Positions 4,345 to 42,630 of a stretch of DNA of 64,000 bases are shown here, piece by piece. The translations under genes and the position numbers were made by a program. Positions within the stretch are counted from its first letter, which is position 1, and the number at the start of each line of letters is the position of its first letter. The notes beneath the pieces were generated by a model. It made no database searches. It was not told the origin of the DNA and saw nothing but the letters and a program-made list of their open reading frames with translations. Source of the stretch: an uncultured Candidatus Saccharibacteria bacterium (GTDB lineage: Bacteria > Patescibacteriota > Minisyncoccia > Phycocordibacterales > CSBR16-119); contig CAZPVH010000004.1 of the NCBI GenBank assembly GCA_964589975.1, positions 10,469 through 74,468 of the forward strand, in the 5' to 3' direction.

Positions 4345-4596
4345 GGAATCTTGTGAGTTTTTTCTTATAAGCCTATGTTTAACCTTTGTCTTACCTTAGC
4401 ATCCTGTATTTCTGTCGCTCCGGGCTATAAAACAAAAATTTGAGCTATTTCTGACTCCTTGAGGACATCAGAGGTAACCCATGAGAACAATCCTATCGGA
4501 TAGCCCCGGGGGAGTCAACGCAAATGTGGATAACCTCAAAACCTTGACGACAGGTAAAGAAGTATTGTCCACTTGGCCTATTTCTAAAGGCTTTTA

Positions 4597-4611
4597 TGAT
4601 ATAATTTCCCC
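4597..4611 (+). promoter_or_regulatory. extended -10 promoter (TGaTATAAT) 6 nt upstream of the ATG (leaderless)
   Basis: TGATATAAT-TTCCCC-ATG; an identical module sits upstream of the gene at 22315. Confidence 0.45.
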
Positions 4612-17797: not shown

Positions 17798-18466
17798 ATG
17801 ACGGTAACATCACCTGACAAGTTAATAGAAGAACATTTGGCATCCCTGCCTGAGCCTATTAAAAAGGCCATCGCTTCTTTCGACTGGGCGAGGGAGGTCT
17901 TCGATATTGGTCGAAAGCATAACATGCATATCGATCGCATTGGCGAGCTTCAAACTGAAGTCATGCTTGTCGTATTGGGACTCATTTCTCCTCGGGATTT
18001 CCAGACTGAACTAATGGAGCGAATCGAGCCTAATCACGATATTGCTATAGAAGTTTCTGACGAGGTGAATAAACGCGTCTTTATCCGGATCCGGGAATTC
18101 ATGAAAAAGTATTATGAGGACGACGGCACGCCAAAAGCTGTGGCGGAACCACCCGACGCCATAAAATCCGCCGAGAAAAAGGTGCTTAATGGCGCGGGAA
18201 TTCGGCTTGAGGGCGACCCTGAGCCTGAACCAGCGAAAATCACCATGGGTCCCGCGTCCATTTCGTCCGAAGAAGATGGAATCATCTCGCTTGGATCGTA
18301 TGATGACTCTGATTCGGCAGCGCCAACTCCGAAAATAGATCCGATCGTGCAGAAAGTCGCGCAGACGATGGAGAAACAGGAAGTCAGACCGTCGCCAATC
18401 ACTGTCATCAAGGCCGAGAATGCGCCAAAAGGTTTTTTGGATCCGTATAGAGAAGTTGTTGAGTAA
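17798..18466 (+). CDS. hypothetical cytoplasmic protein
   Basis: 222 aa, acidic, no recognisable motifs. Confidence 0.5.
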   Translation: MTVTSPDKLIEEHLASLPEPIKKAIASFDWAREVFDIGRKHNMHIDRIGELQTEVMLVVLGLISPRDFQTELMERIEPNHDIAIEVSDEVNKRVFIRIREFMKKYYEDDGTPKAVAEPPDAIKSAEKKVLNGAGIRLEGDPEPEPAKITMGPASISSEEDGIISLGSYDDSDSAAPTPKIDPIVQKVAQTMEKQEVRPSPITVIKAENAPKGFLDPYREVVE

Positions 18467-19999: not shown

Positions 20000-22072
20000 A
20001 TGGGACTTCTAGATCTCCTCTCGGGGAAAAAACCAAAGAATCCGAAGAAAGAAATCCTGCCGGTATTGCCGGAAGAGATTTATCAGGCTGCGACTTTGGA
20101 GCTTCAGGATATTTTGGCGCCGTCGGCTCTTAAAATATCGCCGAAGGCCCTGAATCTCGGCGACAAAATCGCCCGAACGTATTTCGTCATTTCATACCCA
20201 AGGTTCCTATCAGACAATTGGTTCACTCCAATCATAAACCTCGACAAGATCTTCGATATTGCGATCCACATCCATCCCTTGGATACGAACACCATTCTCC
20301 GAAAATTTCAAAAGAAAGTGGCTGAGGTTCAGAGTCAGGTTAATGTTAGAGAATCAAAAGGCCTTGTGCGTGATCCGGTTCTCGATACGGCGTATCAGGA
20401 TCTTGAAGCTCTTCGTGACTCTTTGCAACAGGCTCAAGACAAGATGTTCGACGTTGGACTCTACATCACCATTTACGCGGATTCCATGCCGGAGCTTTCG
20501 AAGATTGAGAATGAAATCAAGTCGATCCTGGAAGCCAAGCTTGTCTATATCAAGCCAGCGCTATTTCAGCAGGATGTTGGTTTCAATAGCGTGGCGCCGC
20601 TTGCGACAGACTTCTTGGCTGTTCATCAGAAGATGAATACCGAGCCTCTTTCATCCATCTTTCCATTCGTCTCTTTCGATCTTTCGTCCGACAAGGGAAT
20701 TCTTTACGGCATAAATCGTCACAACTCTTCTCTGGTTATTTTCGACCGCTTTTCGCTCGAAAACTATAACTCGGTCACGTTTGCCAAGTCCGGTTCGGGT
20801 AAATCATATTCAACCAAACTAGAGATTCTCCGAACGCTCATGTTCGACGCGGAAGTCATCGTGATCGACCCCGAGAGGGAATACGAATATCTCTCTGAGG
20901 CCATTGGTGGCCGGTATTTCAATATTTCGCTCTCGTCCGAACACCACATCAACCCTTTTGATTTGCCTATTCCGACCGCCGATGAGACGCCGGAAGACGT
21001 TCTTCGCGCCAACACTATCCAGCTGGTTGGAATGTTTCGTATCATGCTCGGGGGCCTCACTCCGGAGGAAGACGCGATTATCGACAAGGCTGTGACAGAG
21101 ACCTACGCTCTAAAAGACATCACGTCAGATTCGGATTTTGCAAACATAGAGCCGCCTCTCCTTTCTGATTTCGAAATGGTTCTCGGTGGAATTGAAGGCT
21201 CAGACTCAATCATGACTCGGCTAGCCAAATACACGAAGGGTTCCTGGAAAAATTTCATTAACCAGCCGACAAACGTTGATATTAACAAGCGTTTTATCGT
21301 TTTCTCTGTTCGCGACATGGAAGACGATTTGAAGCCGGTTGCGATGTATATCGTCACGCACTTTATCTGGAACGCCGTCAGGAAGAATCTCAAAAAGCGC
21401 CTGCTTATCGTTGATGAGGCCTGGTGGATGATGAAGAGCGAAGATACTGCTTCCTTCCTTTACAGTATCGCCAAGCGAGGACGAAAATACTTCCTCGGCC
21501 TCTCAACCATCACTCAGGACGTGAATGACTTCGTGGAGAGCCAGTACGGCATGGCTATTGTCACGAACTCTTCGATGCAGCTACTCCTCAAGCAGTCCAC
21601 GAGCTCGGCCGACGCTCTCCAAAAAGTCTTTAACCTGACGGACGAGGAAAAATATCTCCTGCTCGAATCGGAAGTCGGCGAGGGCATCTTCTTTGCGGGC
21701 TTGAAGCATGTTGCCATAAAGGTCATTGCCTCATACACCGAAGATCAGATCATTACTTCGGACCCATCCCAGGTTTTGGCGATCAAGAAGGCTAAAGAGC
21801 AATTCCGAGAAGACGAAAAGGAGTTCGTGCGTACGGAAGGCGAACGTTTGGCAGGGGCCATGAATATTGAAGAAAGGCCAGAACCGACGTCATCTCCGGT
21901 CGAAGAATCGCCGACTAGACCCGCACAAGTTGTGGCTGAGCCAGAAAATCCAATTCCTCCCGCAAAGTCTACGGGGCCGAGGCCTCAGACAGAAACAGAG
22001 AATCTGGCCGAAGAGAGCGAGGGGCTGTCTGACGAGATTGATGATTTGGAGAAGATGTTTAAAGAATATTAG
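20000..22072 (+). CDS. virB4: VirB4/TrbE-family type IV secretion ATPase (ATPase domain)
   Basis: Walker A FAKSGSGKS, Walker B LLIVDEAWWMM, conserved VirB4 C-terminal motifs; acidic C-terminal tail. Confidence 0.85.
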   Translation: MGLLDLLSGKKPKNPKKEILPVLPEEIYQAATLELQDILAPSALKISPKALNLGDKIARTYFVISYPRFLSDNWFTPIINLDKIFDIAIHIHPLDTNTILRKFQKKVAEVQSQVNVRESKGLVRDPVLDTAYQDLEALRDSLQQAQDKMFDVGLYITIYADSMPELSKIENEIKSILEAKLVYIKPALFQQDVGFNSVAPLATDFLAVHQKMNTEPLSSIFPFVSFDLSSDKGILYGINRHNSSLVIFDRFSLENYNSVTFAKSGSGKSYSTKLEILRTLMFDAEVIVIDPEREYEYLSEAIGGRYFNISLSSEHHINPFDLPIPTADETPEDVLRANTIQLVGMFRIMLGGLTPEEDAIIDKAVTETYALKDITSDSDFANIEPPLLSDFEMVLGGIEGSDSIMTRLAKYTKGSWKNFINQPTNVDINKRFIVFSVRDMEDDLKPVAMYIVTHFIWNAVRKNLKKRLLIVDEAWWMMKSEDTASFLYSIAKRGRKYFLGLSTITQDVNDFVESQYGMAIVTNSSMQLLLKQSTSSADALQKVFNLTDEEKYLLLESEVGEGIFFAGLKHVAIKVIASYTEDQIITSDPSQVLAIKKAKEQFREDEKEFVRTEGERLAGAMNIEERPEPTSSPVEESPTRPAQVVAEPENPIPPAKSTGPRPQTETENLAEESEGLSDEIDDLEKMFKEY

Positions 22073-22911: not shown

Positions 22912-23892
22912 ATGACAAATCGGGACTTTTATAAAATATTTTTTGTTGCCGTTTTAGTTCTTTTGCCGTTCTTTTCTTACGCCCAGGTACAAGTTGGTCG
23001 TCGCATTACGCTCGTGGCTTCGCCTCAAAGCCCTGGACCTGGAGAGTCGGTTGTCATCACAGTTTCATCCTCTGAAATAAATATAGATCTTTCCAACATC
23101 GAGTGGTCGGTTGACGGTAAGTCGGCCCAAAAAGGCAAGGGGATGAGAAACTTTTCTTTTACCGCTCCTGGAAATGGAAAATCAAGCACCGTGAGTGTTA
23201 AGGTCTCGCCTCCGACCGGTACCACCGCGAACGAGTCAATAACATTCTCGCCGGCTGATATGGATATCATTTGGGAGGCTGAAAATGCATATACCCCTCC
23301 ATTTTATAAAGGAAAGACGCTACCCTTGAAACAGGGCCAAGTAAAGATAGTGGCAATTCCGAACGTTAGGAGTCAAAGTGGAAATATGATGAAACCATCG
23401 GAGTTTGCCTTCAGCTGGAAGAAAGACGGCCAAAATATGCAGGGCCAGTCTGGCTTCGGCAAGACTAGCTTCTCGTACATGAGTCAGCTTCTTGAAGAGA
23501 CCAATAGGATTGATGTCTTGGCTTCTAACGGCTTGAAACAGGTTGGCGGAGGAATCATTATTTCATATTTCGAGCCAGACTTCGTATTTTATGAAGTAGA
23601 TACATTGCTTGGACCCAAATACCAAAGTGCGCTTCGTGATGGTTTTCGTCCTGAAAAATCGCAGTTAACGCTTGTTGCGGAGCCTTATTTCTTGCCAGCG
23701 AATTGGCAAATAGACCCAGGAACTACTTTTGAGTGGAAAGTAAATAATCAAAAAGTGGGCCCGAAAACGAAGAATACATTGGCTGTAAATGCTGCCTCTC
23801 AGACTAGTAGCTTCAATGTGAGTGTTACATATAATGAGGCTAAGAAACTTTTTCGCAAATTCTCCGAGACAATCAGCATAAATCCTAAATAA
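22912..23892 (+). CDS. secreted hypothetical protein
   Basis: 326 aa with a signal peptide (LLPFFSYAQ). Confidence 0.55.
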   Translation: MTNRDFYKIFFVAVLVLLPFFSYAQVQVGRRITLVASPQSPGPGESVVITVSSSEINIDLSNIEWSVDGKSAQKGKGMRNFSFTAPGNGKSSTVSVKVSPPTGTTANESITFSPADMDIIWEAENAYTPPFYKGKTLPLKQGQVKIVAIPNVRSQSGNMMKPSEFAFSWKKDGQNMQGQSGFGKTSFSYMSQLLEETNRIDVLASNGLKQVGGGIIISYFEPDFVFYEVDTLLGPKYQSALRDGFRPEKSQLTLVAEPYFLPANWQIDPGTTFEWKVNNQKVGPKTKNTLAVNAASQTSSFNVSVTYNEAKKLFRKFSETISINPK

Positions 23893-23893
23893 T

Positions 23894-25393
23894 ATGAGCA
23901 GATCTGCATACAAAAAAATAATTACAGTCGCATTCTTTTTCACCATCGCGGTTGTTTTTATGCCGAGCAAGGCAGACGCAGCGTGTGCAGTTAGTAGTGT
24001 TGCAATGCGTCCGAATGGTGTTCAGCCGACTCAGACAGGCGACACAGATCCGCCAACTCCGGATGATTTTCCAGGACCTAACAATCCGTATAGGAATGAG
24101 AATACGGGTTACGGGAATGAGGGTTATAATGACGACAATCCAAACTTTCCACCGTTTGTGTATGCGGATGTTAGTACCTCTGGCTGTACAAATGATTCTT
24201 TAATTTTTTCGGTAAAGACTCACGTCGAGGCTACTGACGGCGTTGAGGCAGTCCTAGAAGAGATTGTTGTCGTAACGACAAATTCCGATTACGTGTATAT
24301 GCCTGGCCATACGGCCCACAGTAGCTCTTTTACAGTAGCTTACCGCGCGGGTGATCGTTACTGTACAGCTGAAGATTCGGTTTTTGATTGTCAGATATTT
24401 CTTGAGATAAAAAACTCCGATGGTCAACTTTTGTTTTCAAAAGGCACCGCTCAACAGCCAACTCTTTTGTATGAATGTGAATTACCCTGCGGACCCACCG
24501 GCGCAAATTGGCTTTTTGTCGGAGTTCAGGATTTTGGAGTCTCGCTCGACGCGCCGATGGGTGTTGATTTAGGAGACTTTGATTACTTCACTGAGGGGTA
24601 CGACCAGTATCTGGCTCCGTTACCAGGATTCACTGCAACGACCACATCAACCCTAGGCGGTTTTCTGAAAGGTCTTTTCACCGTCCTCGTCATGGTCGCC
24701 GGCATACTGGCATTTATTATGCTTGTGCTTGGTGGTATTACTTATGCGACCGCCGACGCGATCAGCGGGAAAACCAGTGGCAAGGAAATGATGCTAAATG
24801 CGGTCTTGGGACTCATTATCGCTCTTGGAGCATGGGTGATTCTAAACAGCATAAATCCGAACCTGGCTTCAAACCTCTCGATAACCATTCCGAAAGCGAA
24901 CTTCATTCCACGTTACGAGCCTGAAACCGGAGTTGGTGAAAACGTTGAGACGATCACTCTGAACCTTGTTGGCGGCGGCACCACAACCATGACAGCCTGC
25001 GACGAAACGAAAATTGTGCCCATAACAGCCTTTGGTAAGACTTTCCGAATACATCAGGGCCTTGTTACAAATATTCAGGCTGTCGAACAGCAGTGGCTTG
25101 CTATGCCAGAAGATCAGCGCTATAAGATAACCTCGATCGGCGGTTATAATTGTCGAAAGGTTAAAGGTACTCAAACATGGTCGAGTCATGCTTTCGGTAC
25201 TGCAGTTGATATAAATCCGAACAAAAATCCTTTTACCAGCGGACCATTGGTAACCGATATGCCGCCAAGCTTTGTTCAGCTCTGGACAAGTCATGGGTGG
25301 GGCTGGGGAGGAGGTTGGGATAGTGTGAAAGACGCTATGCACTTCAGTAAATATCCGACAGCCGAAGATGGAGACGCTACAATTTCACCATAA
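23894..25393 (+). CDS. membrane-anchored peptidoglycan hydrolase, peptidase M15 (VanY/L-Ala-D-Glu peptidase-like) domain
   Basis: Signal peptide, long central hydrophobic segment, C-terminal SSHAFGTAVDINPN...DAMHFS zinc-binding H-x6-D...H motifs; functional analogue of VirB1/PrgK/TcpG. Confidence 0.65.
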   Translation: MSRSAYKKIITVAFFFTIAVVFMPSKADAACAVSSVAMRPNGVQPTQTGDTDPPTPDDFPGPNNPYRNENTGYGNEGYNDDNPNFPPFVYADVSTSGCTNDSLIFSVKTHVEATDGVEAVLEEIVVVTTNSDYVYMPGHTAHSSSFTVAYRAGDRYCTAEDSVFDCQIFLEIKNSDGQLLFSKGTAQQPTLLYECELPCGPTGANWLFVGVQDFGVSLDAPMGVDLGDFDYFTEGYDQYLAPLPGFTATTTSTLGGFLKGLFTVLVMVAGILAFIMLVLGGITYATADAISGKTSGKEMMLNAVLGLIIALGAWVILNSINPNLASNLSITIPKANFIPRYEPETGVGENVETITLNLVGGGTTTMTACDETKIVPITAFGKTFRIHQGLVTNIQAVEQQWLAMPEDQRYKITSIGGYNCRKVKGTQTWSSHAFGTAVDINPNKNPFTSGPLVTDMPPSFVQLWTSHGWGWGGGWDSVKDAMHFSKYPTAEDGDATISP

Positions 25394-29324: not shown

Positions 29325-30626
29325 TTATTCAGCAGCCTTCTCCTCAGAGGATTCCTCTGTTGTTTCAGTTGGAGCTTCTTCTTTTGCCTCCTCGATAGCT
29401 TCCTCGATTATTTCTTCAGCAGATTCCGTCGGTTTCTCGTCGACAATCTCGTCGTCGGTGTCGGCTTTTGGCGCGCCTTTTCCTTTGATATCGATTCTGT
29501 AGCCGGTAAGCTTCGCTGCCAAACGGACATTTTGTCCACCTTTGCCGATAGCGAGCGAGAGCTGGTCTTCGGCGACTTCTATTTCAGCGATTTTTTCGTC
29601 TGCTTTGATGTTGATATCAAGTATTTTCGCAGGAGAGAGAGACGCCGCGACAAATTCAGCCGGGTCGGAGCTCCATTCAATGATGTCGATCTTCTCGCCT
29701 CCTAGCTCATTCATGACCGTTGTCACGCGAACACCTTTCTGGCCTACACATGAGCCGATTGGGTCGATAGAGTCGTCGTGTGACATGACTGCCATCTTTG
29801 AGCGACTACCTGCCTCGCGAGCGATTGATTTGATCTCAACAGTGCCGCTTGCGATTTCAGGAGACTCGATGGCAAAGAGCGACTCAAGGAATCTTGGGTG
29901 TGAACGGGAGAGGTCGAGGTTTACTCCGCGGCCGGTTTCTTCAACCGCCATGAGGTAAGCCTTGATGCGCTGGCCCTGCATGAATCGTTCGCCGAAGATC
30001 TGCTCTTCGCGCGGCAGGATTCCTGTTGCTCGGTGGAAATCAACGAATAGAACTCCGCGATCGATCTTCTGAACGGTTCCAGTAACAATCTCACCTTCTT
30101 TTCCGCCGTATTCTTCCATGACAGCACCGCGCTCCGCTTCGCGGATGCGCTGGATGATGACCTGCTTCGCGGTCTGAGCGGCAATTCGGCCGAAGTCATC
30201 CTTCATCTCGAGAGGGAAGACGATCTCTTCGCCGAGCTCAGAGCCCTTCTTTATCTTTTTAGCGTCTTCAAGGAGAATATGTTTCTCAGGATTGTAAACG
30301 GGAAGAGGCTCCGGTTCATTCGGATCTTTTTCCACCACCGGCTCAAAGCGCGAAGGGCGGCGCTCGTCGTCTCCAAAGTCTGCTTCTTCTCCCTCGGCCA
30401 GGAACCTTACCGTCGTATCATCAACGACTATTTTTACTTGATAAAACTCCATTCCGCCGGAATCCATATCGAGCTTTACTCTCACGATCTGGCCTTTCTT
30501 GCCGTAATCTTTTTTATAAGCCGCGGCCAAGGATTGCTCTATGGCGTCTACTATTTTGTCCCTAGGAATCTTGCGCTCCTCTTCCAGTTGCATAAGCGCT
30601 GATTTCAATGTCTTTAAGTCCAACAT
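29325..30626 (-). CDS. nusA: transcription termination/antitermination factor NusA
   Basis: N-terminal domain, S1 and two KH domains (GxxG motifs), acidic C-terminal tail. Confidence 0.9.
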   Translation of the reverse strand: MLDLKTLKSALMQLEEERKIPRDKIVDAIEQSLAAAYKKDYGKKGQIVRVKLDMDSGGMEFYQVKIVVDDTTVRFLAEGEEADFGDDERRPSRFEPVVEKDPNEPEPLPVYNPEKHILLEDAKKIKKGSELGEEIVFPLEMKDDFGRIAAQTAKQVIIQRIREAERGAVMEEYGGKEGEIVTGTVQKIDRGVLFVDFHRATGILPREEQIFGERFMQGQRIKAYLMAVEETGRGVNLDLSRSHPRFLESLFAIESPEIASGTVEIKSIAREAGSRSKMAVMSHDDSIDPIGSCVGQKGVRVTTVMNELGGEKIDIIEWSSDPAEFVAASLSPAKILDINIKADEKIAEIEVAEDQLSLAIGKGGQNVRLAAKLTGYRIDIKGKGAPKADTDDEIVDEKPTESAEEIIEEAIEEAKEEAPTETTEESSEEKAAE

Positions 30627-30754
30627 ATATTTAATTGTTACTCCTATTAAATTTTAAACCCTTAATAAAATAGCCCTGGAGGCCAGGACAATCACGCTTC
30701 TATAATAATATTCCACATCAAATAAGTCAAATGTTATGTGCGGCGTGATAAAAT

Positions 30755-33727
30755 ATGGCAATGAAAAAACTTTCAGATGAATTCGTGCTTTCGGTCGGGA
30801 TGCTCCTTACGGCGTTTTTGATTTTTCAAGCAGCTATTATCCCCGGGATGTACAACAAAGATCAAACAGCTGCAGTTTTTACATCTAAGAAAGATTCGTT
30901 TGAAATCAGTCCTTCCAAGTCAAACCCAAAAGTATTTAGTTTTGAATATAAATTTGAAACTTTAAAATCTGGCAAAGAAGCTTACTTTGATATACCGATT
31001 AGGAGGTTTGATGACAAAAGAACTTCTCTTGGCGCGGACAATGAGATTTTTGGCAACATAAGAGACGCATGGAACTATCCTGTCAGAGAAAATGCGTTCA
31101 TGAATGCTCGTGGTGGGGGAGAAAAAAGAGGCGGAGATGACCGCTCTGATGAAGATCCAGACGTTCTTGGGCAAGTGAACTGTCGAGCAAATACTGATAT
31201 TGATGGCTATTTTAAAGCTTATTTTGAGGATGTGGCGCTGGGGAATGGTGTCGGTTACGCGGATCAGATTTTTGGAGAGGCTAGGCGAAACGAAGTCTGT
31301 CAGGTTCTACAGGATATCTCAGAACTCATCAATCTTGATGAGACGGACGTAACTCCTGATATTATATTCATGGCAGACCCTGGAAATATTCCGCCAAATG
31401 CACTGGCAGGAGCTTCATCCTATTTTAACAATGCCTCGATTGGGCCGGACAACGGATTTCTACATCGCCACATCATCTCGGAGGAAGATCCAACGCCGGC
31501 AGACGGAATGTTTGATGCTTATGTTGTCACAAATTTTAATGGTATCAGCTGGGATGTTGATACGGATTTGAATCCTGGCACATATGACATGTATTCCGTC
31601 CTGTATCACGAAATATTACACGCCCTTGGTTTCAGGGGACTTCTACCTGCTGTTATAACTAATTCAGGTTCTACGTTCCATCACGATACATTTGACAGCT
31701 TCTCATTCAAGGATGATTCTTTAGCGGATCAGTTCATTGATCCGAGTGACTTTAGTCTTGATGTATTTAACGGAGCCCCATCGCCTTGGTTTGTTACAAA
31801 CGATGTTGTTTATAGGGGCACGAGGAATTTGGACGGGGCAGTTCCTGACGGCATCAGGCCTATTTATAGCCCGATTGGGTGGCAGCAGGGCTCGTCTCTG
31901 TCACACTTTGATATGGCGAGAGCGAATGGCGAGGTCTACGTTATGCATCCATCAATTGGCACCAATACCGAGCGTTCGATTCACGAGCATGAAAAGGAGG
32001 TTTTATGCCACCTAGGCTATGTGGTAGAGGGGGTGAGTGGCTGCGAAGACGCGACGCCTTGGGCCGAAAATGATGTCGCGGCCCTACAGACTGGAAGCGC
32101 GATTTGCATTGAACCGCTTTTAAATGATTTTTCTCTTGAAAATGGGACTGTCCGCCTCAATGAGGTTATTCCTATAGATATTCAAGCAGGGGATGTTATT
32201 GCGTACCATAGTACTGTTAACTGCACAGGTGCGCCGCTCCCGGATGCTGATTGGGCCAGGACCATATTATTTGAATCAACAAGCAATGATAGCGTAAGAC
32301 TTCTGGCTTATAGGGATAGAGATACTGCCTCGGATAGGTTGTCGAATCAGGCAATTATCAAGATTGTGGGAGATTGCAGCAATGATCCAGATGAATATGT
32401 CTGCAATGGAGATTTCGAGATGACAACTGCCCCAAATGACGCATTCATTTCCTGTCCGAACGGCTGGGACCCCTTCATTTCCGCGACTACTTACTGGTGT
32501 AACGCATACGACGATGGCGCCTATGTTCTTTCGGCAAATCAGCAGATGGACATAGTTGTTCCAGAGAACGATGATTATATTGCAGATGTTAATCCTTTGC
32601 CTTGGGCCTTCTCTAACAAGCTTCGTCAGCCACTCGTTGCCGGGGAAGATTACATTTTGTCTTTCGATATGTGGGGCCACATGGATTATATACCTCCGGC
32701 GCTCATAATCGGTTTAAATATGGAGCCATTGGTCGGCCACACCGCTGAAACATGGTATGCCGACGCGGAGTCTTTTCCCGATCAGACTATACCGGTAACC
32801 CAATTGGGAGAGCCGATTTCTCAAACCATCCTAAATGTCTGGTGGGATCATTACGAAATTCCATTCACGGCGAATGACAACTATGAATCTCTTATTTTTG
32901 GATCAGATATATACAAATTATTCCTAGACAATATATCTATCAAGCGAGCAGATATTTTTGAAGAAGGCGGATTAAATACAGTTCAGGGCAAGGTTTATTA
33001 TGATCTCAATTCAAACGGTCAGCTAGAGACAGGCGAGAGCGGGTTGAGCGGTATAACAGTTGGAATATTTCCGCTTGGTTCAACAATACCGCTTGCCACC
33101 ACAACGACAGAAGATGGTGTAAATCTCGGTGAATACGTGTTTGAAAATATGCCCGACAATGTATATAGAATGGTCCTCATGGATGAATCTGTTTTTCCAT
33201 CTGTTACCGAACCAGCGTCTAATAGCTTATTGCCGGGGTACAACCATGCAGTGCATACGTATATCGTCGATGGCGAGACGTCCGAAGGTAATGATTTTGG
33301 TGTCACGCTCGAGGTTGGTCAAATGCCGAATATTCATCTAAAGAAAGGGTTGGCGGATTCCTCGCTCTCTCTTATTGATCGCAATATTACATGGCAGATT
33401 GAGGCTACAAATACGGGAGAAATCGCTGCTCATAACGTTAATATTTCAGACCCTATTCCACTCGGACTTATATACTATAGCCACGTTACACCATCTCCAA
33501 ACATTTATAGCCCAGATACCCATATCTGGAATCTCCCGGTCGTTCAGTCGGGCCAGACGATCGTTCTCCAGATCACCATGAAAGTTCCGCTAGGAACTTG
33601 CGGCAAAAAAGACAATACGGCCAACCTGGTATCTCTAAATGAAGTCGATAGCGATCCAGCTGACAATGTCGCATCGGCGACAATCAAGCTTCGACCGTGC
33701 GGAAATCAAATTGAATCAGTGAAGTAG
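30755..33727 (+). CDS. large secreted protein with HExxH zinc-metallopeptidase-like motif, CnaB/SdrD-type and DUF11 repeat domains
   Basis: Signal peptide, YSVLYHEILHALGF, a CnaB-like segment (VQGKVYYDLNSNGQLETGESGLSGITVG) and a DUF11-like C-terminus. The true start is probably the ATG at 30761 (TGaTAAAAT-N6-ATG). Confidence 0.6.
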   Translation: MAMKKLSDEFVLSVGMLLTAFLIFQAAIIPGMYNKDQTAAVFTSKKDSFEISPSKSNPKVFSFEYKFETLKSGKEAYFDIPIRRFDDKRTSLGADNEIFGNIRDAWNYPVRENAFMNARGGGEKRGGDDRSDEDPDVLGQVNCRANTDIDGYFKAYFEDVALGNGVGYADQIFGEARRNEVCQVLQDISELINLDETDVTPDIIFMADPGNIPPNALAGASSYFNNASIGPDNGFLHRHIISEEDPTPADGMFDAYVVTNFNGISWDVDTDLNPGTYDMYSVLYHEILHALGFRGLLPAVITNSGSTFHHDTFDSFSFKDDSLADQFIDPSDFSLDVFNGAPSPWFVTNDVVYRGTRNLDGAVPDGIRPIYSPIGWQQGSSLSHFDMARANGEVYVMHPSIGTNTERSIHEHEKEVLCHLGYVVEGVSGCEDATPWAENDVAALQTGSAICIEPLLNDFSLENGTVRLNEVIPIDIQAGDVIAYHSTVNCTGAPLPDADWARTILFESTSNDSVRLLAYRDRDTASDRLSNQAIIKIVGDCSNDPDEYVCNGDFEMTTAPNDAFISCPNGWDPFISATTYWCNAYDDGAYVLSANQQMDIVVPENDDYIADVNPLPWAFSNKLRQPLVAGEDYILSFDMWGHMDYIPPALIIGLNMEPLVGHTAETWYADAESFPDQTIPVTQLGEPISQTILNVWWDHYEIPFTANDNYESLIFGSDIYKLFLDNISIKRADIFEEGGLNTVQGKVYYDLNSNGQLETGESGLSGITVGIFPLGSTIPLATTTTEDGVNLGEYVFENMPDNVYRMVLMDESVFPSVTEPASNSLLPGYNHAVHTYIVDGETSEGNDFGVTLEVGQMPNIHLKKGLADSSLSLIDRNITWQIEATNTGEIAAHNVNISDPIPLGLIYYSHVTPSPNIYSPDTHIWNLPVVQSGQTIVLQITMKVPLGTCGKKDNTANLVSLNEVDSDPADNVASATIKLRPCGNQIESVK

Positions 33728-33828
33728 ATTTTGTTGGTTATCCACAAAGATTATATATAGAATCACTCGGTACGCGGCTCAGGTGTTATGATAGTACTAT
33801 CAATTAGAACTAAGCTTGTTTTTTATTT

Positions 33829-34131
33829 ATGAATTCGCAAACGCAAATCAAAAAGAAGTCTCAATGGTTTCTGTATGCCCTTCTTGTAGTTTTGGTAATC
33901 ATCGTACTTATCATAATGATTGGTAAAAATAAGCAAGAAAAGATTTCGGATGATCGTCGCGATCAAATAATAGAGCTTCTGAGGGCTAGAAACACTGCAA
34001 ACTCAAACCTGACACCGGAACAGCAAGCCCAGGTTGTAGATAAACTTCGCGCAGGCAATAAAACCAACAAGAGCAATCTTAATGAGGAGCAAATGCAGCA
34101 GGTCATGGACTCGCTCCGATCGAGGCAATAA
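33829..34131 (+). CDS. small TM protein with internal duplicated LRARN/LRAGN motif
   Basis: 100 aa with an N-terminal TM helix and repeated Q-rich segments. Confidence 0.45.
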   Translation: MNSQTQIKKKSQWFLYALLVVLVIIVLIIMIGKNKQEKISDDRRDQIIELLRARNTANSNLTPEQQAQVVDKLRAGNKTNKSNLNEEQMQQVMDSLRSRQ

Positions 34132-34143
34132 TCTCATGACTTT

Positions 34144-36468
34144 ATGGTCCGTTTCCTTTTAAAAAGCAAGACCAGGAAAATCAGAACCTCCATTATCGCG
34201 GGGGCTCTGATTGTTTTCGGAGCTATTTTCTTTGGTTTCGGTGGCGCGCAGGCGGCTCCAAACTTTGATCCGATTCCTGCAGATTCTGAGCCAGGAGATA
34301 TTTCCGGATTTGCTTGGATGGGAACTGATATTAATAATCCGGGACAGAGTGAGGGAGGAGGGGGGTGGCTTAATATGAGTTGCAAAACTTCTTATTGCTA
34401 CGACTGGAATGGCAACGGCTCTTTAGAAGATAATGAAAAGTGGGGCGTCACCATAAATTTGAGCCACACGGCTTCTGCTGGAAGTTTCTCTGGCTATGCC
34501 TGGAGTTCAAATTACGGATGGCTGGCATTTAGGGGTCCAGGAATATCGAGATGCTGGACACAGCATCCAGGTATAACCACCGATGGAATGGTTCAGGCAG
34601 ACATATGGGGCGGTGGAAGTTTGATCGATGTTACGGGGTGGGCTCAATTCGTGGCTGGGGGAGATAATGATCTTGATGGTTGGGACGGTTGCGTTGCTTT
34701 TAGTGGTGCGAATCACGGCGTAAAGCTCAACATGGATACTGGGGATCTCGAGGGTTGGGCCTGGGGTGGTCCGGTTGTGGGTTGGATCAGTTTCCAGACG
34801 CCAGAATGTCCAGAGTGCAATACCAGCGTTAACCTAGGGGGAACTCCGCAGCTCACTTTCTGGGCAAGCCCAACAGTACTTACTCCCGGCATAACCAGCT
34901 CGACTCTCCATTGGACGTCAAATACTGTAAACGGGAATTACGTGGCTACGTGTACGGATTATAATAATACTAGTAATTACACCCATTGGAGAAGTGTCGG
35001 CATGCCGACCGTCACTAATGTAGGAGAAATCAGTACAAGTGAGGGCAATCTGCCTAATGGGACCCATCCGATAAATAACGTGACCCAGACTACTACGTAT
35101 AGTCTTACATGCCAAGACAGGTTCGGCGAGGATTTGCCGACCCAGTATGTGACGGTGACTGTACAAGTACCTGGCTGTACTGATCCATTGGCTCCAAACT
35201 ACAATCCGCTCGCGAACATTGATGATGGTAGTTGCGGAGGCGCCGGTACGCCAACTGTTACACTAAACGTTATTACAAATGGTTCTCCTGATAATACATT
35301 GCCAGAAGGCAGTAGTAACGCTACCGACTATCAAGTGAGTCCGCGATGGGTATTCACTAATAGAAACCAATTTGCTTCGGCATACTGTACTCAGTCATTC
35401 AAAGACGAGAACGGTGTGACACAGAACTTGAATGCATGGACCGGATCACAATTATCTAACCCAACGCTTGTTGGAAACAATCCATTCGATACTTCAGGTA
35501 ACAGCTGGGTTACAACGACAAATATCGCAACGTACGCGGATGACGCGCCGGTCGGTTCAGTGTTCACCTTTACTATCTCTTGTGTGGATCTTGGTGGGGT
35601 TACTCATTCTGCGAGTGATACGGTGATAATTGTTGCCGGACCAATCGATCCGCCAACACCGTCACTTGCGCTCTTCGCTGAGAATCCGACCATTATTATT
35701 GGTAGCGGTAATTATGACGAAAAGCTTTGGTGGTCATCTAACAATCCTAGCGAGCTTGAATCCTGTACAGGCGACTTCGTTCGAACTTCTCCTTCAGCGC
35801 AGAACCCGAACTTGGTTGGTTGGGAAACAGGTAATCTGCCTGAGCCGAACGTTAACCAAAATCCTGGCCACACCGCCCATCAAACTGCATTCAACACTTT
35901 GGCCGCAGGCGTAACATCTCCAGCGACATATAGATTTACCCTCACTTGTGACGATGATTTGCATCCTGGTGAAGAAGTTAGCGCTTCAACCAACATACAG
36001 TTTATTGATACTCCGGTCTCGACCGAGCCACCATTCGTTTCGCTATCTATTAAGACGCCTGATACGAACCCAGTCGGAGGCGGATCAGAGCAGATTCCAG
36101 CTGGTGGTATTGACCCATTCACCCTCAAGTGGTCAGCTCTCAATGTTCACGGATGTAAGGCAGCATCCGATCAGTACTTGCCAGGCGGCACATCTCCTGT
36201 AAGCAGCAATGCGAACTGGGACGGTCAACCTGTTCCTGACGATGGTGATCCTACAGACTCATCGATGGTAGAGAAAACCTTCCCTATACTGCCTCCGGAT
36301 AACATGAACACGATTTTCTTCATCACTGACTGTGTTCCTGATGATCCGACAACATTTGGAAGTGCGCCGTTACCTGATGTGTGGGTATGTATGTCGATCA
36401 CCGGACAAGCATTCCAGTCATGTAGTCCGTCTGGACCAGGTCGACCACCGGCTTACATAGAAATCTAA
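34144..36468 (+). CDS. large secreted hypothetical protein (774 aa)
   Basis: Signal peptide; Trp/Gly/Thr-rich predicted beta-rich domains; no catalytic motif recognised. Confidence 0.6.
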   Translation: MVRFLLKSKTRKIRTSIIAGALIVFGAIFFGFGGAQAAPNFDPIPADSEPGDISGFAWMGTDINNPGQSEGGGGWLNMSCKTSYCYDWNGNGSLEDNEKWGVTINLSHTASAGSFSGYAWSSNYGWLAFRGPGISRCWTQHPGITTDGMVQADIWGGGSLIDVTGWAQFVAGGDNDLDGWDGCVAFSGANHGVKLNMDTGDLEGWAWGGPVVGWISFQTPECPECNTSVNLGGTPQLTFWASPTVLTPGITSSTLHWTSNTVNGNYVATCTDYNNTSNYTHWRSVGMPTVTNVGEISTSEGNLPNGTHPINNVTQTTTYSLTCQDRFGEDLPTQYVTVTVQVPGCTDPLAPNYNPLANIDDGSCGGAGTPTVTLNVITNGSPDNTLPEGSSNATDYQVSPRWVFTNRNQFASAYCTQSFKDENGVTQNLNAWTGSQLSNPTLVGNNPFDTSGNSWVTTTNIATYADDAPVGSVFTFTISCVDLGGVTHSASDTVIIVAGPIDPPTPSLALFAENPTIIIGSGNYDEKLWWSSNNPSELESCTGDFVRTSPSAQNPNLVGWETGNLPEPNVNQNPGHTAHQTAFNTLAAGVTSPATYRFTLTCDDDLHPGEEVSASTNIQFIDTPVSTEPPFVSLSIKTPDTNPVGGGSEQIPAGGIDPFTLKWSALNVHGCKAASDQYLPGGTSPVSSNANWDGQPVPDDGDPTDSSMVEKTFPILPPDNMNTIFFITDCVPDDPTTFGSAPLPDVWVCMSITGQAFQSCSPSGPGRPPAYIEI

Positions 36469-36618
36469 AAGAAAAATCAAAAACTTCGCATTAGCGAAGT
36501 TTTTGATTGAGTGGGTTTTCCACAAACTGTATGACAAATGTCAACAGGGAAGAGCCATGAAGTGATATTATAGAAGAAGCTTTAGAAATTATTAGTCGCA
36601 TTATTTTTATTATTTGTT

Positions 36619-39600
36619 ATGTCATCTTTTAGAACCAAAGTCGCCGCCGCAGTTTTCACAATCGTCGCTCTCACATTCGGGCCATACGCGGCTCTCGCGC
36701 AGAACTCCTGGACTCCGCCGACACAGGCTCCGACCGGCGGCAACGTTCCGGCTCCGGTAAACGTCGGAATATCCGACCAGACCAAGCTTGGACCTTTGTC
36801 GATAAAGGGCGCTTTCAAGAGCCTCTCCACTTCTACGCTCTCTGGTGATGTTGTCACTCAGCCTGACACCAGTGGCTTTGGCTTCATGGCAAACTTTCTT
36901 GAGACATTCTTCTATAACAATGTCTATGTGGGAGATGCAACTCCTTTCAATGGTTCCGGTAATGAAATCCCGGTAGACTTCAATGTCTACGGTAAGTTCA
37001 AATATCAAACAGCAGATAATGCCGGCAATCCTGAGCCAGTAAATCCTGGTGACATTCTCGTGGCCAATGACGAGGGCTACACCGAATGGGCTGACCCATC
37101 AACTATTTCAGGTGGCGGTTCAGACCCAAGATTGCCAAATGGTACATCAAAAGGCGACACATTATATTGGGATCCGACCACTAGTAAATGGGTGGTAGCA
37201 TCAAATGTTCAAATAAGTCCAAATGTTTTTGAGTCTCTTCGAGCTACTGGCACAAATGGAGGACTTCATGTTTTGAATGACGGCTCAGTGGTTTCTGATT
37301 ACCGAGCTTCTTTTACCGGCGGACTCAAAGTAACTCTTCCGAGCGGCGCTCCGACACCTGGACAGGTTCTTGAAACATCAGACAACCAAGGAAACATAGC
37401 TTGGGGAGATGGACTACCTCCGGGAGGAAATAATGGTGATGTTTTGGTGTGGAACAGTACTACTAATCAATGGGAATCGACGACTTTCAATGTAACTGGA
37501 AGTCTTCCTCCGGGTAACTCAACCGGCCAGTCTCTTCGATGGACCGGTACTGCATGGCAGGTGACGGATGCTGTTAAGACTCCGAGCGATACAACTGTCC
37601 AGATTGGCGCCAACGCAAGCAACACCGCAGTCATGATTGGAAACACGGTCAACACGTCGTTCATGCAGATCAATTCCAACAGTTTAAATTTAAACCCTGA
37701 CGCTATCAGTATCCCTCTAAACGGCACAGCCGCTGCTGGTAAGGTTCTGGCCTCAAGTAATAACACTGGTGCCCTGGCTTGGACAGATGTCTCAAGTCTT
37801 CCCGGGGGACTTCCCGCAGGAACAACTGGTCAGACCCTTTGGCACAACGGCACATCATGGCAACCTACAAGCAAACTTATTTGGAACGGCGCAGGAGAAG
37901 TCTTAAAGTTTGAAGGATCGGGTCTTCTTTTGAAGGGGGAGGGCGGCGCACTCGACCCAGCTGAGGGACGATTCTTGCAGTCTAAAAATGATCAGGGGGA
38001 AGTAGTATGGAATAAATACTTTGTTTATAAAGACATACCTTATGTAGATGATGGTGTAGACAAGCATATCGACTCTATCGAGATTCTTGAAAGCAATGGT
38101 GATGATACCAGGACTTCTGGACTGGCTAACTATGGCGAATATACTTACCTTGCGAATCGTTTAGAAGTCGATGGTCTTACGTTCCTAAATAACGACACAG
38201 AGGTTAACGGCGAGTCTATATTAAATGGCAATACCACAATTTCTACTAGTGGAGACCTGTGGCTTGAGGGAATCGACGCCCTGCCACCGACACAGATGGA
38301 TCTTAATGGCAATCCTGTATCGATGAATTACAACCTAGAGTCTCTTTGTATAAATAGACAAGATTTCAAGGTCGTCCTCTGTGATCCAGGCGCGGGCAAA
38401 CCAAAGCCTCAAGTTATTGGAACATTTACAGAGACTTTTGGTCCTGGTTCTGGCACAGGCGTATCATTCCCAAGACCTAATCAGGCCCCAGGTCCTGTTG
38501 AGGTGAAAATGTGTGCTGCTGGCGGTGGTGGTGGTGGTGGTGGACGTGGATTTGAGATTGATCTTAATGAATATGGTCACGGTGGTGGTGGTGGTGGTGG
38601 TGGTGGTAAGGGGCAATGTTCGACAACTACAATAAATCCTGGTGATGGAGAAGAAATCACATGGACATCGATAGGCGCAGGTGGTTCTGGAGGAAGTCCG
38701 GGAAATATTGATGTGGTCTATGGTTACGGCGAGCCGTATCAGGTAAATGCTAATACTGCAGCTACAAGCGGTCAGCCTGGAGGAGGTACTCAGGTTTATT
38801 TTGAAGGAAATCTATTGGCTAGTCTAATGGGCGGATCAGGTGGTTATGCGGGCGGAAATGCTAGTACTAGCGGACAAGGTATCGGTGGAAGTGGTGGTTC
38901 GAGTGATTTAACAGTTGCTACTGTTTGGTGGCATAAGGGTGCCAACGGTCAAATAGACTCAGAGGGTGGCAATGGTGGTCATGGTGGTAAAGGAGAAGAT
39001 AATGCTTCTGGGCAGGGTGGTGAGGGTGGTGGTTCTGGTCAATTTCAAAGTGGCCAACAATTTGGTGGAAATGGAATGCAGGGAGCTGCTGGTTATGGCG
39101 GCGGTGGCGGTGGCGGCGCATCTGGAAAGTGGTACGATTACGCCTATACTTTAAGTAATCAGAATGATGATGATAACGCTTACGTTAGTCATGGAGGCTG
39201 GGGCGGAAATGGCGGAAGTGGTTATGTTGCTATTACCTACAACATATATCTTCCAGATCCGGAACCTATTACTGAACAGCTCTTTACAGAATCAGGCACG
39301 TTTAACATAAATGTTATTCCGACAAATGTTGTTGATGTTACTATCGAAGCTTGGGGAGGCGGCGGTGGCGGAGGACTTGCTCAAAACGCTGTTGGTGGTC
39401 TGTCCGGAAGCCACAATAGATACGGCGGCGGCGGAGGTTCTGGAGGCTATGCGAAGACGATTATTCCGAGAGCAAACCTCACAAATACTCTGAATGTAAT
39501 CGTTGGCGGAGGAGGAGCAGCCTCAGCTAATGGTGGACCAAGTAGTGTTGTCGGGGGCGGTCAGATTGTTACGGCATACGGTGGTGAGGGCGGAAAAGAC

Positions 39601-39861
39601 TCGATCCAGAACGCAGCATGTACAGCCGGAGGTAATGGAGGTACGAATAACTACGGACAGGATCAGGCGGTAGACGGAGGCGACGGAGGAGCTTGTGGAG
39701 TTCTCCAGGTCAACCCACCTGTTGTCGGGGCTGGCCAGGGTGGAGTCCAGTCTGTCGGTGGTTATGGCACAGGAGGCAACGGAGCTAAACTGTTCGGTTC
39801 AGGAGCTAGTCCTGTAGCGGCCCAGAGTGGTCAGGCCGGACGAGTTCTCATCTCTTGGTAA
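36619..39861 (+). CDS. giant secreted Gly-rich repeat protein (1080 aa)
   Basis: Signal peptide; N-terminal half has at least 6 degenerate G(D/Q)xL-x(8–12)-W repeats of about 38 aa; C-terminal half has poly-Gly runs and GGxGG repeats. Confidence 0.65.
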   Translation: MSSFRTKVAAAVFTIVALTFGPYAALAQNSWTPPTQAPTGGNVPAPVNVGISDQTKLGPLSIKGAFKSLSTSTLSGDVVTQPDTSGFGFMANFLETFFYNNVYVGDATPFNGSGNEIPVDFNVYGKFKYQTADNAGNPEPVNPGDILVANDEGYTEWADPSTISGGGSDPRLPNGTSKGDTLYWDPTTSKWVVASNVQISPNVFESLRATGTNGGLHVLNDGSVVSDYRASFTGGLKVTLPSGAPTPGQVLETSDNQGNIAWGDGLPPGGNNGDVLVWNSTTNQWESTTFNVTGSLPPGNSTGQSLRWTGTAWQVTDAVKTPSDTTVQIGANASNTAVMIGNTVNTSFMQINSNSLNLNPDAISIPLNGTAAAGKVLASSNNTGALAWTDVSSLPGGLPAGTTGQTLWHNGTSWQPTSKLIWNGAGEVLKFEGSGLLLKGEGGALDPAEGRFLQSKNDQGEVVWNKYFVYKDIPYVDDGVDKHIDSIEILESNGDDTRTSGLANYGEYTYLANRLEVDGLTFLNNDTEVNGESILNGNTTISTSGDLWLEGIDALPPTQMDLNGNPVSMNYNLESLCINRQDFKVVLCDPGAGKPKPQVIGTFTETFGPGSGTGVSFPRPNQAPGPVEVKMCAAGGGGGGGGRGFEIDLNEYGHGGGGGGGGGKGQCSTTTINPGDGEEITWTSIGAGGSGGSPGNIDVVYGYGEPYQVNANTAATSGQPGGGTQVYFEGNLLASLMGGSGGYAGGNASTSGQGIGGSGGSSDLTVATVWWHKGANGQIDSEGGNGGHGGKGEDNASGQGGEGGGSGQFQSGQQFGGNGMQGAAGYGGGGGGGASGKWYDYAYTLSNQNDDDNAYVSHGGWGGNGGSGYVAITYNIYLPDPEPITEQLFTESGTFNINVIPTNVVDVTIEAWGGGGGGGLAQNAVGGLSGSHNRYGGGGGSGGYAKTIIPRANLTNTLNVIVGGGGAASANGGPSSVVGGGQIVTAYGGEGGKDSIQNAACTAGGNGGTNNYGQDQAVDGGDGGACGVLQVNPPVVGAGQGGVQSVGGYGTGGNGAKLFGSGASPVAAQSGQAGRVLISW
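38521..38612 (+). repeat. (GGT)n microsatellites inside the Gly-rich gene
   Basis: Two runs of 7–8 GGT units encoding Gly8–Gly9. Confidence 0.7.
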
Positions 39862-41892: not shown

Positions 41893-42630
41893 ATGAAAAA
41901 GAAGAATCTATTAACAGAACGTCGGATGCTCATTGGTCTCATCGCCCTCTTGTTTGTGATGGGCTTCATCCATACCATGGGAATTCTAACACTTACGAAC
42001 AAACTTGGTAGCCGCGTAGACTTATCGACGCAGACAGCCCAGGTCGCCACACTTAGTATCTGTTTGCAAATAACACCGGCATACAATATTACTACTACTG
42101 GAGAAATTCTCGGTTGGGATGGTGGCCCTGGTGTAGCTCAGCATATGTATTGGAACATTAAAAACCTTTGTTCTACCAATATTAGAATAATTAATGTTGC
42201 TAATTTGAACATATCAGAGCCAAATTTGTTCACTGTTCAAGCAAGAAATCAAAATGGCTCAATAGTTCCAATTTTAGGCTCAGGTTTATCAACCTACGGA
42301 ATAGGTGCTTATTATGAGTTTGTTAACTGTGCAACATGTAGTAACACATGGGTTCCTTCAACAGTACCAAATTCTAATTATCAAATATCTACCTCTGTTA
42401 TTCCTCCACAAGCGACGCGTTTAATTGATTTGTCTGCGGTTTACTCTAGGGGCGGCTCAGGTTCAGATGCTCCGATAAGAATTGCTCCTAAAGCTATAAA
42501 GTGGGTCATGGAAAGTTCTGTAGCTGATAACAATATTTCTGCAACTGATATATTGACCACTCAAGTTGGTACAACGAATGCTAATTATTGGGCACCGGAT
42601 TTCATCGATGCTGATAATTATGTTAACTAG
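41893..42630 (+). CDS. secreted hypothetical protein
   Basis: 245 aa with a signal peptide/TM helix; Thr/Asn-rich. Confidence 0.55.
   Translation: MKKKNLLTERRMLIGLIALLFVMGFIHTMGILTLTNKLGSRVDLSTQTAQVATLSICLQITPAYNITTTGEILGWDGGPGVAQHMYWNIKNLCSTNIRIINVANLNISEPNLFTVQARNQNGSIVPILGSGLSTYGIGAYYEFVNCATCSNTWVPSTVPNSNYQISTSVIPPQATRLIDLSAVYSRGGSGSDAPIRIAPKAIKWVMESSVADNNISATDILTTQVGTTNANYWAPDFIDADNYVN

Follow-up and report, generated by a model that had tools for sequence, protein, structure and literature searches.

Organization of the locus

We analysed a 64,000-nucleotide window of DNA from an uncultured Candidatus Saccharibacteria bacterium (GenBank assembly GCA_964589975.1, contig CAZPVH010000004.1, positions 10,469 to 74,468), in which four plus-strand genes for exported proteins, here called A, B, C and D, are flanked by minus-strand nusA, ppa and tig on one side and by plus-strand tpiA and pgk on the other. 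We propose, with a probability of about one half, that these genes are two evolutionarily independent units standing side by side: gene A, which encodes a zinc metalloprotease, and genes B, C and D, a surface module that in other lineages forms the head of a pilus operon.

Comparison of gene order carries this proposal. In a Logan assembly of a close relative (L001), the arrangement is the same as in the window, with nusA facing away and A, B, C and D reading toward tpiA and pgk. In nine GTDB Paceibacterota genomes (L004-L012), nusA is followed by B, C and D and then by tpiA and pgk in these same orientations, with no A within 10 kb and only one or two B-like genes in the interval between nusA and C. 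In L001 and L004-L014, C is followed by D. The interval from nusA to tpiA behaves like an island of surface proteins in which B-C(-D) is conserved. Solitary homologs of A lie between TatD and rpsF, between nrdAB and rplJL, between fusA and nusG, and between a rhodanese gene and pheS. In assembly GCA_964426385.1, two A paralogs are found on other contigs (L083 and L084, 48% and 45% identical to A), and the B-C-D locus of the same genome (L007) is without A. Thus, the A protease family is multi-copy within small genomes. It is a dispersed family, a member of which was by chance inserted next to B-C-D in the lineage of the window. Because A homologs occur alone and B-C-D loci occur without A, the locus is composite and its two units are independent in evolution.

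An earlier interpretation made from the letters alone (the sequence-only reading) had described three consecutive plus-strand genes for giant exported proteins ahead of a Gly-rich one, and had treated them as a single locus. The genes are where it placed them: A, B and C are intact plus-strand open reading frames (ORFs) with a summed length of 1,864 aa, all three products are predicted to be extracytoplasmic, and each protein, like D, has one hydrophobic segment, which is N-terminal. "Giant" overstates proteins of 774-990 aa, and the idea of one functional locus fails on the solitary occurrence of the A family elsewhere and on the absence of A from the otherwise identical nusA|B-C-D|tpiA arrangement of relatives. 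The same reading had allowed that the genes might be fragments of mis-assembled repeats. There are no tandem DNA repeats in positions 30000-38500, where the sole simple repeats are GGT/TGG runs inside D, and no paralogs of the locus genes occur within the window, which excludes mis-assembled repeats. We found 99 homologs of A and 68 of C, many at E = 0 and many full-length at 40-79% identity in many independent assemblies; those with a named source are nearly all from Patescibacteria/Paceibacterota. Together with the syntenic gene order in L001 and the confident predicted folds of A and C, these homologs leave next to no credence for the idea that the ORFs are assembly artefacts or decaying pseudogenes.

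Table 1 Positions of the genes, domains, motifs and hairpin of the locus in the window (AF2, AlphaFold2; pLDDT, predicted local distance difference test; TM, transmembrane; CBM, carbohydrate-binding module)
Feature	Position	Strand	Description and basis
Gene A	30755..33727	+	990-aa multi-domain extracytoplasmic zinc metalloprotease (predicted); ORF, 99 homologs, AF2 model with mean pLDDT 79.9
A residues 8-32	30776..30850	+	N-terminal hydrophobic helix; hydropathy, predicted helix 8-32, no A-x-A-type site
A residues ~135-432	31157..32050	+	Catalytic domain; pLDDT mostly above 90, NF038122 match, most conserved part of the family
A residues 285-293, HEILHALGF	31607..31633	+	Zinc-binding/catalytic motif by sequence; H285, E286 and H289 invariant in 54 sequences
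A SLSH384FD...YVM397HP	31895..31948	+	Candidate third zinc ligand and Met-turn; roles by analogy with metzincins
A residues ~440-735	32072..32959	+	Beta-sandwich and CBM-like jelly roll; all-beta prediction, least conserved part
A residues ~742-850	32978..33304	+	SdrD_B (CnaB-like); Pfam PF17210, PDB SdrD match
A residues ~858-980	33326..33694	+	DUF11/CLIPPER (CnaA-like); Pfam, candidate isopeptide triad K864/D899/N954
Gene B	33829..34131	+	100-aa bitopic membrane protein; TM helix at residues ~13-32, three amphipathic helical repeats
Gene C	34144..36468	+	774-aa Sec-exported fibrillar surface protein (predicted); ORF, 68 homologs, AF2 model
C residues 1-37	34144..34254	+	Signal peptide; AQA|AP cleavage by the -3/-1 rule, hydropathy, model
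C residues ~45-225	34276..34818	+	Orphan N-terminal domain; four G-x-AW...GW-[IL]-x-F beta-hairpin motifs, two pseudo-repeats
C residues ~232-755	34837..36408	+	Four Ig-like beta-sandwich domains (stalk); AF2 model
C residues 756-774	36409..36465	+	Disordered Pro/Gly/Ser tail ending PAYIEI; pLDDT below 50 at 768-774
Perfect hairpin, 15-bp stem	36475..36508		7 nt past the C stop; RNA dG -24.9 kcal/mol, z -7.2
Gene D	36619..39861	+	1080-aa Gly-rich secreted protein; Pfam Gly_rich_2, E 2e-8

Gene A and its catalytic domain

The N-terminus of A is probably an uncleaved signal anchor, because its hydrophobic stretch is 22 residues long and has no small residues at -3/-1. Behind it lies the predicted catalytic domain. 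In an alignment of 54 A sequences, H285, E286, H289, S381, S383, H384, F385, D386, M397 and E413 are invariant; H384 stands in the context GSSLSHFD, and M397 follows 13 residues later in the context YVM[HN]P. All 12 cysteines of A are kept to some degree in the same sequences, and seven of them are invariant. In the AF2 model, pLDDT exceeds 90 over most of residues 140-300 and 350-540, and the secondary structure runs from a helix at 174-191 through strands to the HExxH helix at 279-290, with a further helix at 411-419 after the Met, an order compatible with a metzincin fold.

Metzincins, among them leishmanolysin (M8) and astacin (M12A), are marked by an HExxHxxGF helix and a Met-turn. In leishmanolysin, the third His is located not at +6 but past a long insert of about 62 residues. 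A resembles leishmanolysin-type metzincins in the HExxHxxGF sequence on a helix, the distal invariant His, the Met 13 residues further on and the helix thereafter. Its insert before the third His is longer, at about 91 residues, and places H384 about 95 residues downstream. The extended metzincin motif HExxHxxGxx(H/D) is absent: A reads HEILHALGFRG, with Gly295 at +6, and the family consensus is HExxHALGFRG. No match of A to Pfam Peptidase_M8 or astacin was found at E<=1, M8 is absent from the families matched by 43 A homologs, and no other Pfam peptidase family matches A.

The closest named relative is the NCBIfam profile NF038122 (metallo_LGF). Residues 246-422 of A match positions 111-273 of its 274 positions (E = 3.8e-11), and all 43 of the 43 homologs tested match it as well, each below threshold (best E 4.3e-13). 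The HExxHxLGF helix aligns with A through the conserved His and Met, whereas the first ~110 profile positions are unmatched by A, which has in addition a long multi-domain C-terminus. Since the A-type sequences score 28-64 bits, under the cut-off of 80, the A clade is by profile score a sister of NF038122, itself an uncharacterised metalloprotease family, and not a member of it. A profile search restricted to the catalytic domain retrieved unnamed proteins of 435-460 aa (P0304-P0310) that consist of an A-type domain and a type IX secretion system (T9SS) sorting tail and that match NF038122 at 41-64 bits, which suggests that the protease domain has been shared or exchanged between Bacteroidota-type organisms and Patescibacteria. 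Secreted multi-domain HExxH proteases are an already known kind of protein, to which A adds a new member.

C-terminal modules of A

A beta-sandwich at residues ~440-540 and a poorly conserved jelly roll at ~555-735 follow the catalytic domain; weak CBM_4_9 matches were obtained for 5 of the 43 homologs. SdrD_B is matched at residues 746-810 with 30.9 bits against a gathering cut-off of 29.7 and recurs in 40 of the 43 homologs (best E 3.6e-14), and the corresponding match to SdrD in the PDB has an E value of 2.2e-12. DUF11 (PF01345) is matched at residues 872-977 with 69.2 bits against a cut-off of 24.6 (E = 4.8e-19). The combination of an HExxH metalloprotease with a CnaB-like SdrD_B and a DUF11 domain, read earlier from the sequence, is therefore borne out by Pfam and NCBIfam. 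In a recent study, DUF11 was renamed CLIPPER and shown to be CnaA-like, with an isopeptide bond of the Lys-Asp-Asn type (PMC12617251). In A, K864, D899 and N954 are found at the expected motif positions and are kept in 36, 28 (plus 9 with Glu) and 36 of the 54 aligned sequences. A phmmer search with the CLIPPER region of A did not retrieve 9IFR.

A has in common with MSCRAMM/SdrD B repeats and CLIPPER stalks (9IFR; PMC12617251) that both domains are present above the Pfam thresholds, that there is a candidate triad, and that the protein is extracellular and rich in cysteines capable of forming disulfides. In contrast to such stalks, A has one copy of each domain and no tandem array, and the two domains are C-terminal, far from the membrane helix, in a protein without an LPXTG motif. 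No sortase signal was found in A, which ends in RPCGNQIESVK, of the form C-x7-K, and has no C-terminal hydrophobic segment. The sequence-only reading had seen an adhesin-protease architecture in A, but without an LPXTG motif or any other C-terminal anchor A is not a classical wall-anchored adhesin. Sortase anchoring was rejected for A and C alike, for want of an LPXTG-type signal and because the sole hydrophobic segment of each is N-terminal.

Among the A homologs, the catalytic half is constant and the C-terminal half varies, carrying SdrD_B plus DUF11, NHL, Kelch, SprB, PG_binding_1, CBM or other modules. Such swapping fits targeting modules better than it fits a stalk. Sequence and profile searches of the PDB with the alignments of A, the C family and B returned only SdrD B domains, a PKD-like chain and weak helical matches.

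Genes B and C

The AF2 model of C, with a pLDDT of 79.9 and a predicted template modelling score (pTM) of 0.38, is one of beads on a string. Its N-terminal domain is all-beta, with a Gly and Trp pattern that is invariant in the family alignment, and has no match in Pfam, NCBIfam or the PDB sequences. Copies of this domain confirmed by tblastn number 299 in GTDB species genomes and range over Paceibacteria, Kaiser-, Taylor-, Wolfe-, Yanofsky- and Nealsonbacteria and others; when 1.84 billion representatives were searched with a single sequence, at least 1,530 matched at E<=1e-3. Within the family, the domain nearly always comes straight after the signal peptide and the remainder is PKD- or Ig-like, with highly variable lengths and C-terminal architectures. 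The sequence-only reading had called B and C novel. This stands insofar as neither B nor C has a Pfam or NCBIfam family, but C cannot be called an orphan, being one of a very large family of Patescibacteria proteins. In the literature, we found no mention of the motif IGWISF and no description of the A, B or C families.

A signal peptide, a distinct N-terminal domain and a tandem Ig-like stalk are all present in C, which in architecture is the build of a fibrillar adhesin. Compared with fibrillar adhesins and tandem-Ig fibres (the RTX extenders 6XI1/4P99, GhpA 9FLW, RbmA 4BE5), C has only four Ig-like domains, a tip domain with no known relative, and a short C-terminal motif in place of a type I secretion system (T1SS), T9SS or sortase signal. 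A special kinship between C and GhpA was rejected, as nothing but Ig-like similarity underlies the match. The B-C pair forms a surface module, uncharacterised and found across the lineage, of adhesin-like build, whose tip domain and putative retention signal have no known counterpart.

Two further observations concern C and its homologs. Residues 343-364 of C (nt 35170-35235) contain a Cys-bounded motif, PGCTDPLAPNYNPLANIDDGSC, and this stretch is 64-78% identical to parts of Bacteroidota-type T9SS cargo (Por_Secre_tail) and of an Aureispira DUF1566 protein; its sequence suggests a small linker module that these proteins share. In L009, the C homolog is split into an ORF at 4186-5895 without the C-terminal motif and an 85-aa ORF at 6021-6278 that ends in PGYEEF, probably through a frameshift or assembly error.

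B carries a positive charge at its N-terminus and has a single TM helix; its three repeats fit the pattern [LIV][ST]xE[EQ]xxxIxxxL. In the window, 12 nt separate its gene from C, and 25 of 77 C-family genes are preceded, at a distance of -4 to 18 nt, by a B-like ORF, with identities down to about 25%. B recalls the periplasmic Spy/CpxP LTxxQ chaperones and three-helix bundles such as the protein A B domain in its three short amphipathic helices with motifs of the L-T-x-E-Q type, but it is membrane-anchored and far smaller. Homology of B to Spy/CpxP was rejected as not significant (CpxP, E = 0.073; Spy PDB chains, E = 0.4-0.7; Pfam LTXXQ not listed), and a weak profile match to the protein A B domain (E = 5e-4) was likewise judged not significant for homology. 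In five loci of relatives, B is preceded by a further B-like paralog (L004:9265-9582, L005:9263-9571, L006:9266-9583, L010:9183-9497 and L011:4231-4539). These paralogs combine a TM helix with near-perfect tandem repeats such as YTEAELYQKAYEALKAPEGEMKQ.

The C-terminal motif of the C family

The extreme C-terminus is conserved in the C family, in the form P-x-[YFW]-x-E-[IF]-COOH or the variant LP-x-W-x-E-[IV]-x-P-[FW]. The protein of the window ends in RPPAYIEI, with neither an LPXTG-type signal nor a C-terminal hydrophobic segment, and in the AF2 model the motif is located in the low-confidence tail past the last Ig domain. The strict terminal motif is found in 35 of 74 family ORFs (47%); among the other ORFs of 150 aa or longer in these loci, 15 of 869 have it (1.7%). 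Several of these 15 carriers from outside the family are secreted or pilin-like. Among independent representatives, the motif is present in 53 of 133.

A similar ending, DPYREVVE, is found on a 222-aa ORF of the window (17798-18466) in the region resembling a type IV secretion system (T4SS). The likeness is probably due to chance, because this protein has no signal peptide.

Gene D and the association with type IV pilus genes

In D, as in C, the signal-peptidase site predicted by the -3/-1 rule is canonical; it falls after residue 27 (ALA|QN). The mature N-terminus, SWTPPTQAPTGGNVPAPVNVG..Q.K, is common to the D-like proteins of pilus-linked loci, and D and the D-like proteins share a start of the form (A)W[ST]xPTxxPPxxNxxxP[IV]N[VI]GxxxQxKxGxL right after the signal peptide. 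Toward the C-terminus these proteins vary and are often rich in Gly. Examples of the D-like proteins are L045:11226-12793, L057:8451-9857, L057:11210-12622 and L031:11702-14964.

In distant Patescibacteria, the gene order is a B-like gene, a C-like gene, at least one D-like gene, PilB, PilC, three small pilins, a pilin-like protein of ~600 aa and tpiA (L045, L053, L069, L057, L066, L047, L048, L033, L036 and other loci). By Pfam, PilB consists of T2SSE and MshEN (E about 1e-120), PilC is T2SSF and the pilins are N_methyl proteins; the ~600-aa pilin-like protein ends in W-x-E-[VL]-E. Of the 56 C-family loci whose downstream flank reaches 6 kb or more, 11 have a co-oriented PilB within 6 kb downstream. 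Complete, compact type IV pilus operons lie between the C/D-like genes and tpiA at L045:13116-19919, L069:13030-19166 and L053:13215-19967. The four proteins of the window are not themselves type IV pilins: A-D have Sec-type or anchor-type N-termini, no N_methyl match and no prepilin signal.

Type IV pili carry associated adhesins of the PilY1/PilC type, and host attachment in Saccharibacteria depends on these pili. The resemblance of B-C(-D) to pilus-associated adhesins is one of position, directly upstream of and co-oriented with pilB, pilC and the pilin genes in other Patescibacteria. In contrast to PilY1, however, C has no kinship to it in sequence or fold, carries a Sec signal rather than a prepilin signal, and is encoded in a window that lacks pilus genes. 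Membrane families of unknown function that are enriched in the candidate phyla radiation (CPR) are reported to cluster around pili (Meheust et al., PMC6744442).

The T4SS-like cluster of the window, 4-10 kb upstream of the locus, includes a VirB4/TraG-type ATPase (20000-22072) and a T4SS_pilin with an M15 peptidase (23894-25393). Four genes on the opposite strand, clpP, tig, ppa and nusA, intervene, and homologs of A and C are found without a nearby VirB4, so that there is no sign of membership of A-C in that cluster. According to a recent survey, the T4SSs of Patescibacteria are chromosomal, lie near housekeeping genes and have no detectable PrgB-type adhesins (PMC12102498).

Proposed roles and alternative explanations

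Much of bacterial diversity belongs to the Patescibacteria (CPR), which seem to spend their lives attached to other cells. Apart from those of a few cultured Saccharibacteria, we know of no attachment proteins of this group. The locus supplies candidates of two kinds, a protease family with swappable targeting modules and a widespread, unannotated surface family paired with a small membrane protein. On our proposal of two independent units, A would act as an extracytoplasmic zinc endopeptidase, probably membrane-tethered or else released, whose beta-sandwich, CBM-like, SdrD_B and CLIPPER modules most likely serve in targeting, binding and stabilisation, and whose substrates would be surface proteins, either on a partner or host cell or in its own envelope. 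C would be exported by Sec and displayed with its N-terminal domain of aromatic beta-hairpin repeats outward as a binding tip, held at the cell surface by its C-terminal tail, possibly via the ectodomain of B. The ligand of the N-terminal domain would be on another cell and would probably be a glycan or wall polymer, and the B-C-D module may cooperate with type IV pili in attachment. From sequence and gene order, B-C-D looks like an old, tightly coupled surface module of Patescibacteria, and B-C(-D) are candidate host-attachment proteins.

Several results weigh against this interpretation. (i) The NF038122 score of A, 43.6 bits against a cut-off of 80, is below membership. (ii) A Foldseek search of the PDB with the whole 990-aa model of A is dominated by Ig-like and SdrD matches, with no protease in the top 50. 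(iii) The protease of A is membrane-proximal and its Ig-like domains are distal, the reverse of an enzyme-presenting stalk. (iv) The co-occurrence of the terminal motif with B, in itself a point in favour (the exact Phi-x-E-Phi end is found in 20 of 25 C-family proteins with a B partner and in 15 of 47 without one; Fisher p = 1.5e-4), is a comparison that ignores kinship, and the motif could be simply an inherited terminal strand. (v) There is no pilB or pilC in the slot of the window, of L001 or of L004-L012, nor anywhere in the 64-kb window. The pilus link is thus an ancestral or comparative one that rests on more distant lineages.

A bolder version of the proposal for B-C seems doubtful to us, namely that it is a Patescibacteria-wide display system for host attachment, ancestrally coupled to pili, in which a new tip domain is retained by a C-terminal docking signal without a TM segment and B acts as receptor or anchor. 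If the terminal motif is such a docking signal, it would be a new mechanism of surface retention for monoderm bacteria and a simple sequence tag for the CPR surface proteome. If it is not, the result is still a clean re-annotation, in which the locus is composite and the T4SS link positional only. B-C and A are testable leads for CPR host attachment, with nothing mechanistically surprising so far.

For the protease, one alternative is that A serves only its own cell, in maturing or shedding its surface proteins or remodelling its wall, without any attack on a host. The probable signal anchor would keep the catalytic domain beside its own membrane, some A homologs carry PG_binding_1, and A paralogs lie among housekeeping genes. 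We nevertheless consider this rather doubtful, as the variable NHL, Kelch, SprB and CBM modules suggest diverse external targets and the short relatives of A are T9SS-secreted cargo of Bacteroidota type. For the surface module, C and perhaps D could instead be structural, S-layer-like components of the envelope, with B as a membrane-side assembly or anchoring factor. The fixed position of the module among housekeeping genes across many lineages would suit such a role, and the conserved C-terminal tail of C is compatible with a signal for docking to wall or membrane. However, the structural matches to Sap, EA1 and HPI are generic Ig-like sandwiches only, no SLH or other known anchoring domain from Pfam or NCBIfam is found in C or D, the variable lengths and C-termini of the family are more typical of adhesins under diversifying selection, and the module is co-oriented with pilus genes. 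We consider a structural role unlikely.

The sequence-only reading had joined A, B and C into one adhesin-protease locus working with the T4SS-like cluster in host attachment or predation. Four points could be cited for it: that cluster is near; the order T4SS, nusA, C recurs in relatives; monoderm T4SSs use surface adhesins, of which none has been found for Patescibacteria (PMC12102498); and the Foldseek matches of the whole A model include the Ig-like domains of PrgB. The recurring order, however, follows from a chromosome backbone that is conserved in general, and chromosome order is all that the two share; the PrgB match reflects generic Ig-like similarity; four minus-strand housekeeping genes stand between the clusters; A is found at unrelated sites without T4SS genes; and the neighbours of B-C-D in other lineages are genes for type IV pili rather than for a T4SS. 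We found no evidence for the tie and regard it as very unlikely, and we retain the interpretation of two independent units.

Other features of the window

The hairpin behind C is the sole outlier of a promoter and terminator scan whose counts were otherwise no higher than in shuffled sequences. Transcription could be terminated or attenuated there, between C and D. The window gave nothing in Rfam and tRNA scans, and PHROGs gave nothing for A, B or C and a weak tail-fibre-assembly-like match at the C-terminus of D. Four ORFs without a Pfam match lie in or beside the T4SS-like cluster, at 4612-8775 (1387 aa), 13080-15356 (758 aa), 15449-17788 (779 aa) and 22912-23892 (326 aa). The 245-aa protein encoded at 41893-42630 has a hydrophobic segment at its N-terminus and matches nothing in Pfam or PHROGs, and its gene is also found directly after pgk in L001, L004, L006, L007, L008, L012 and L014.

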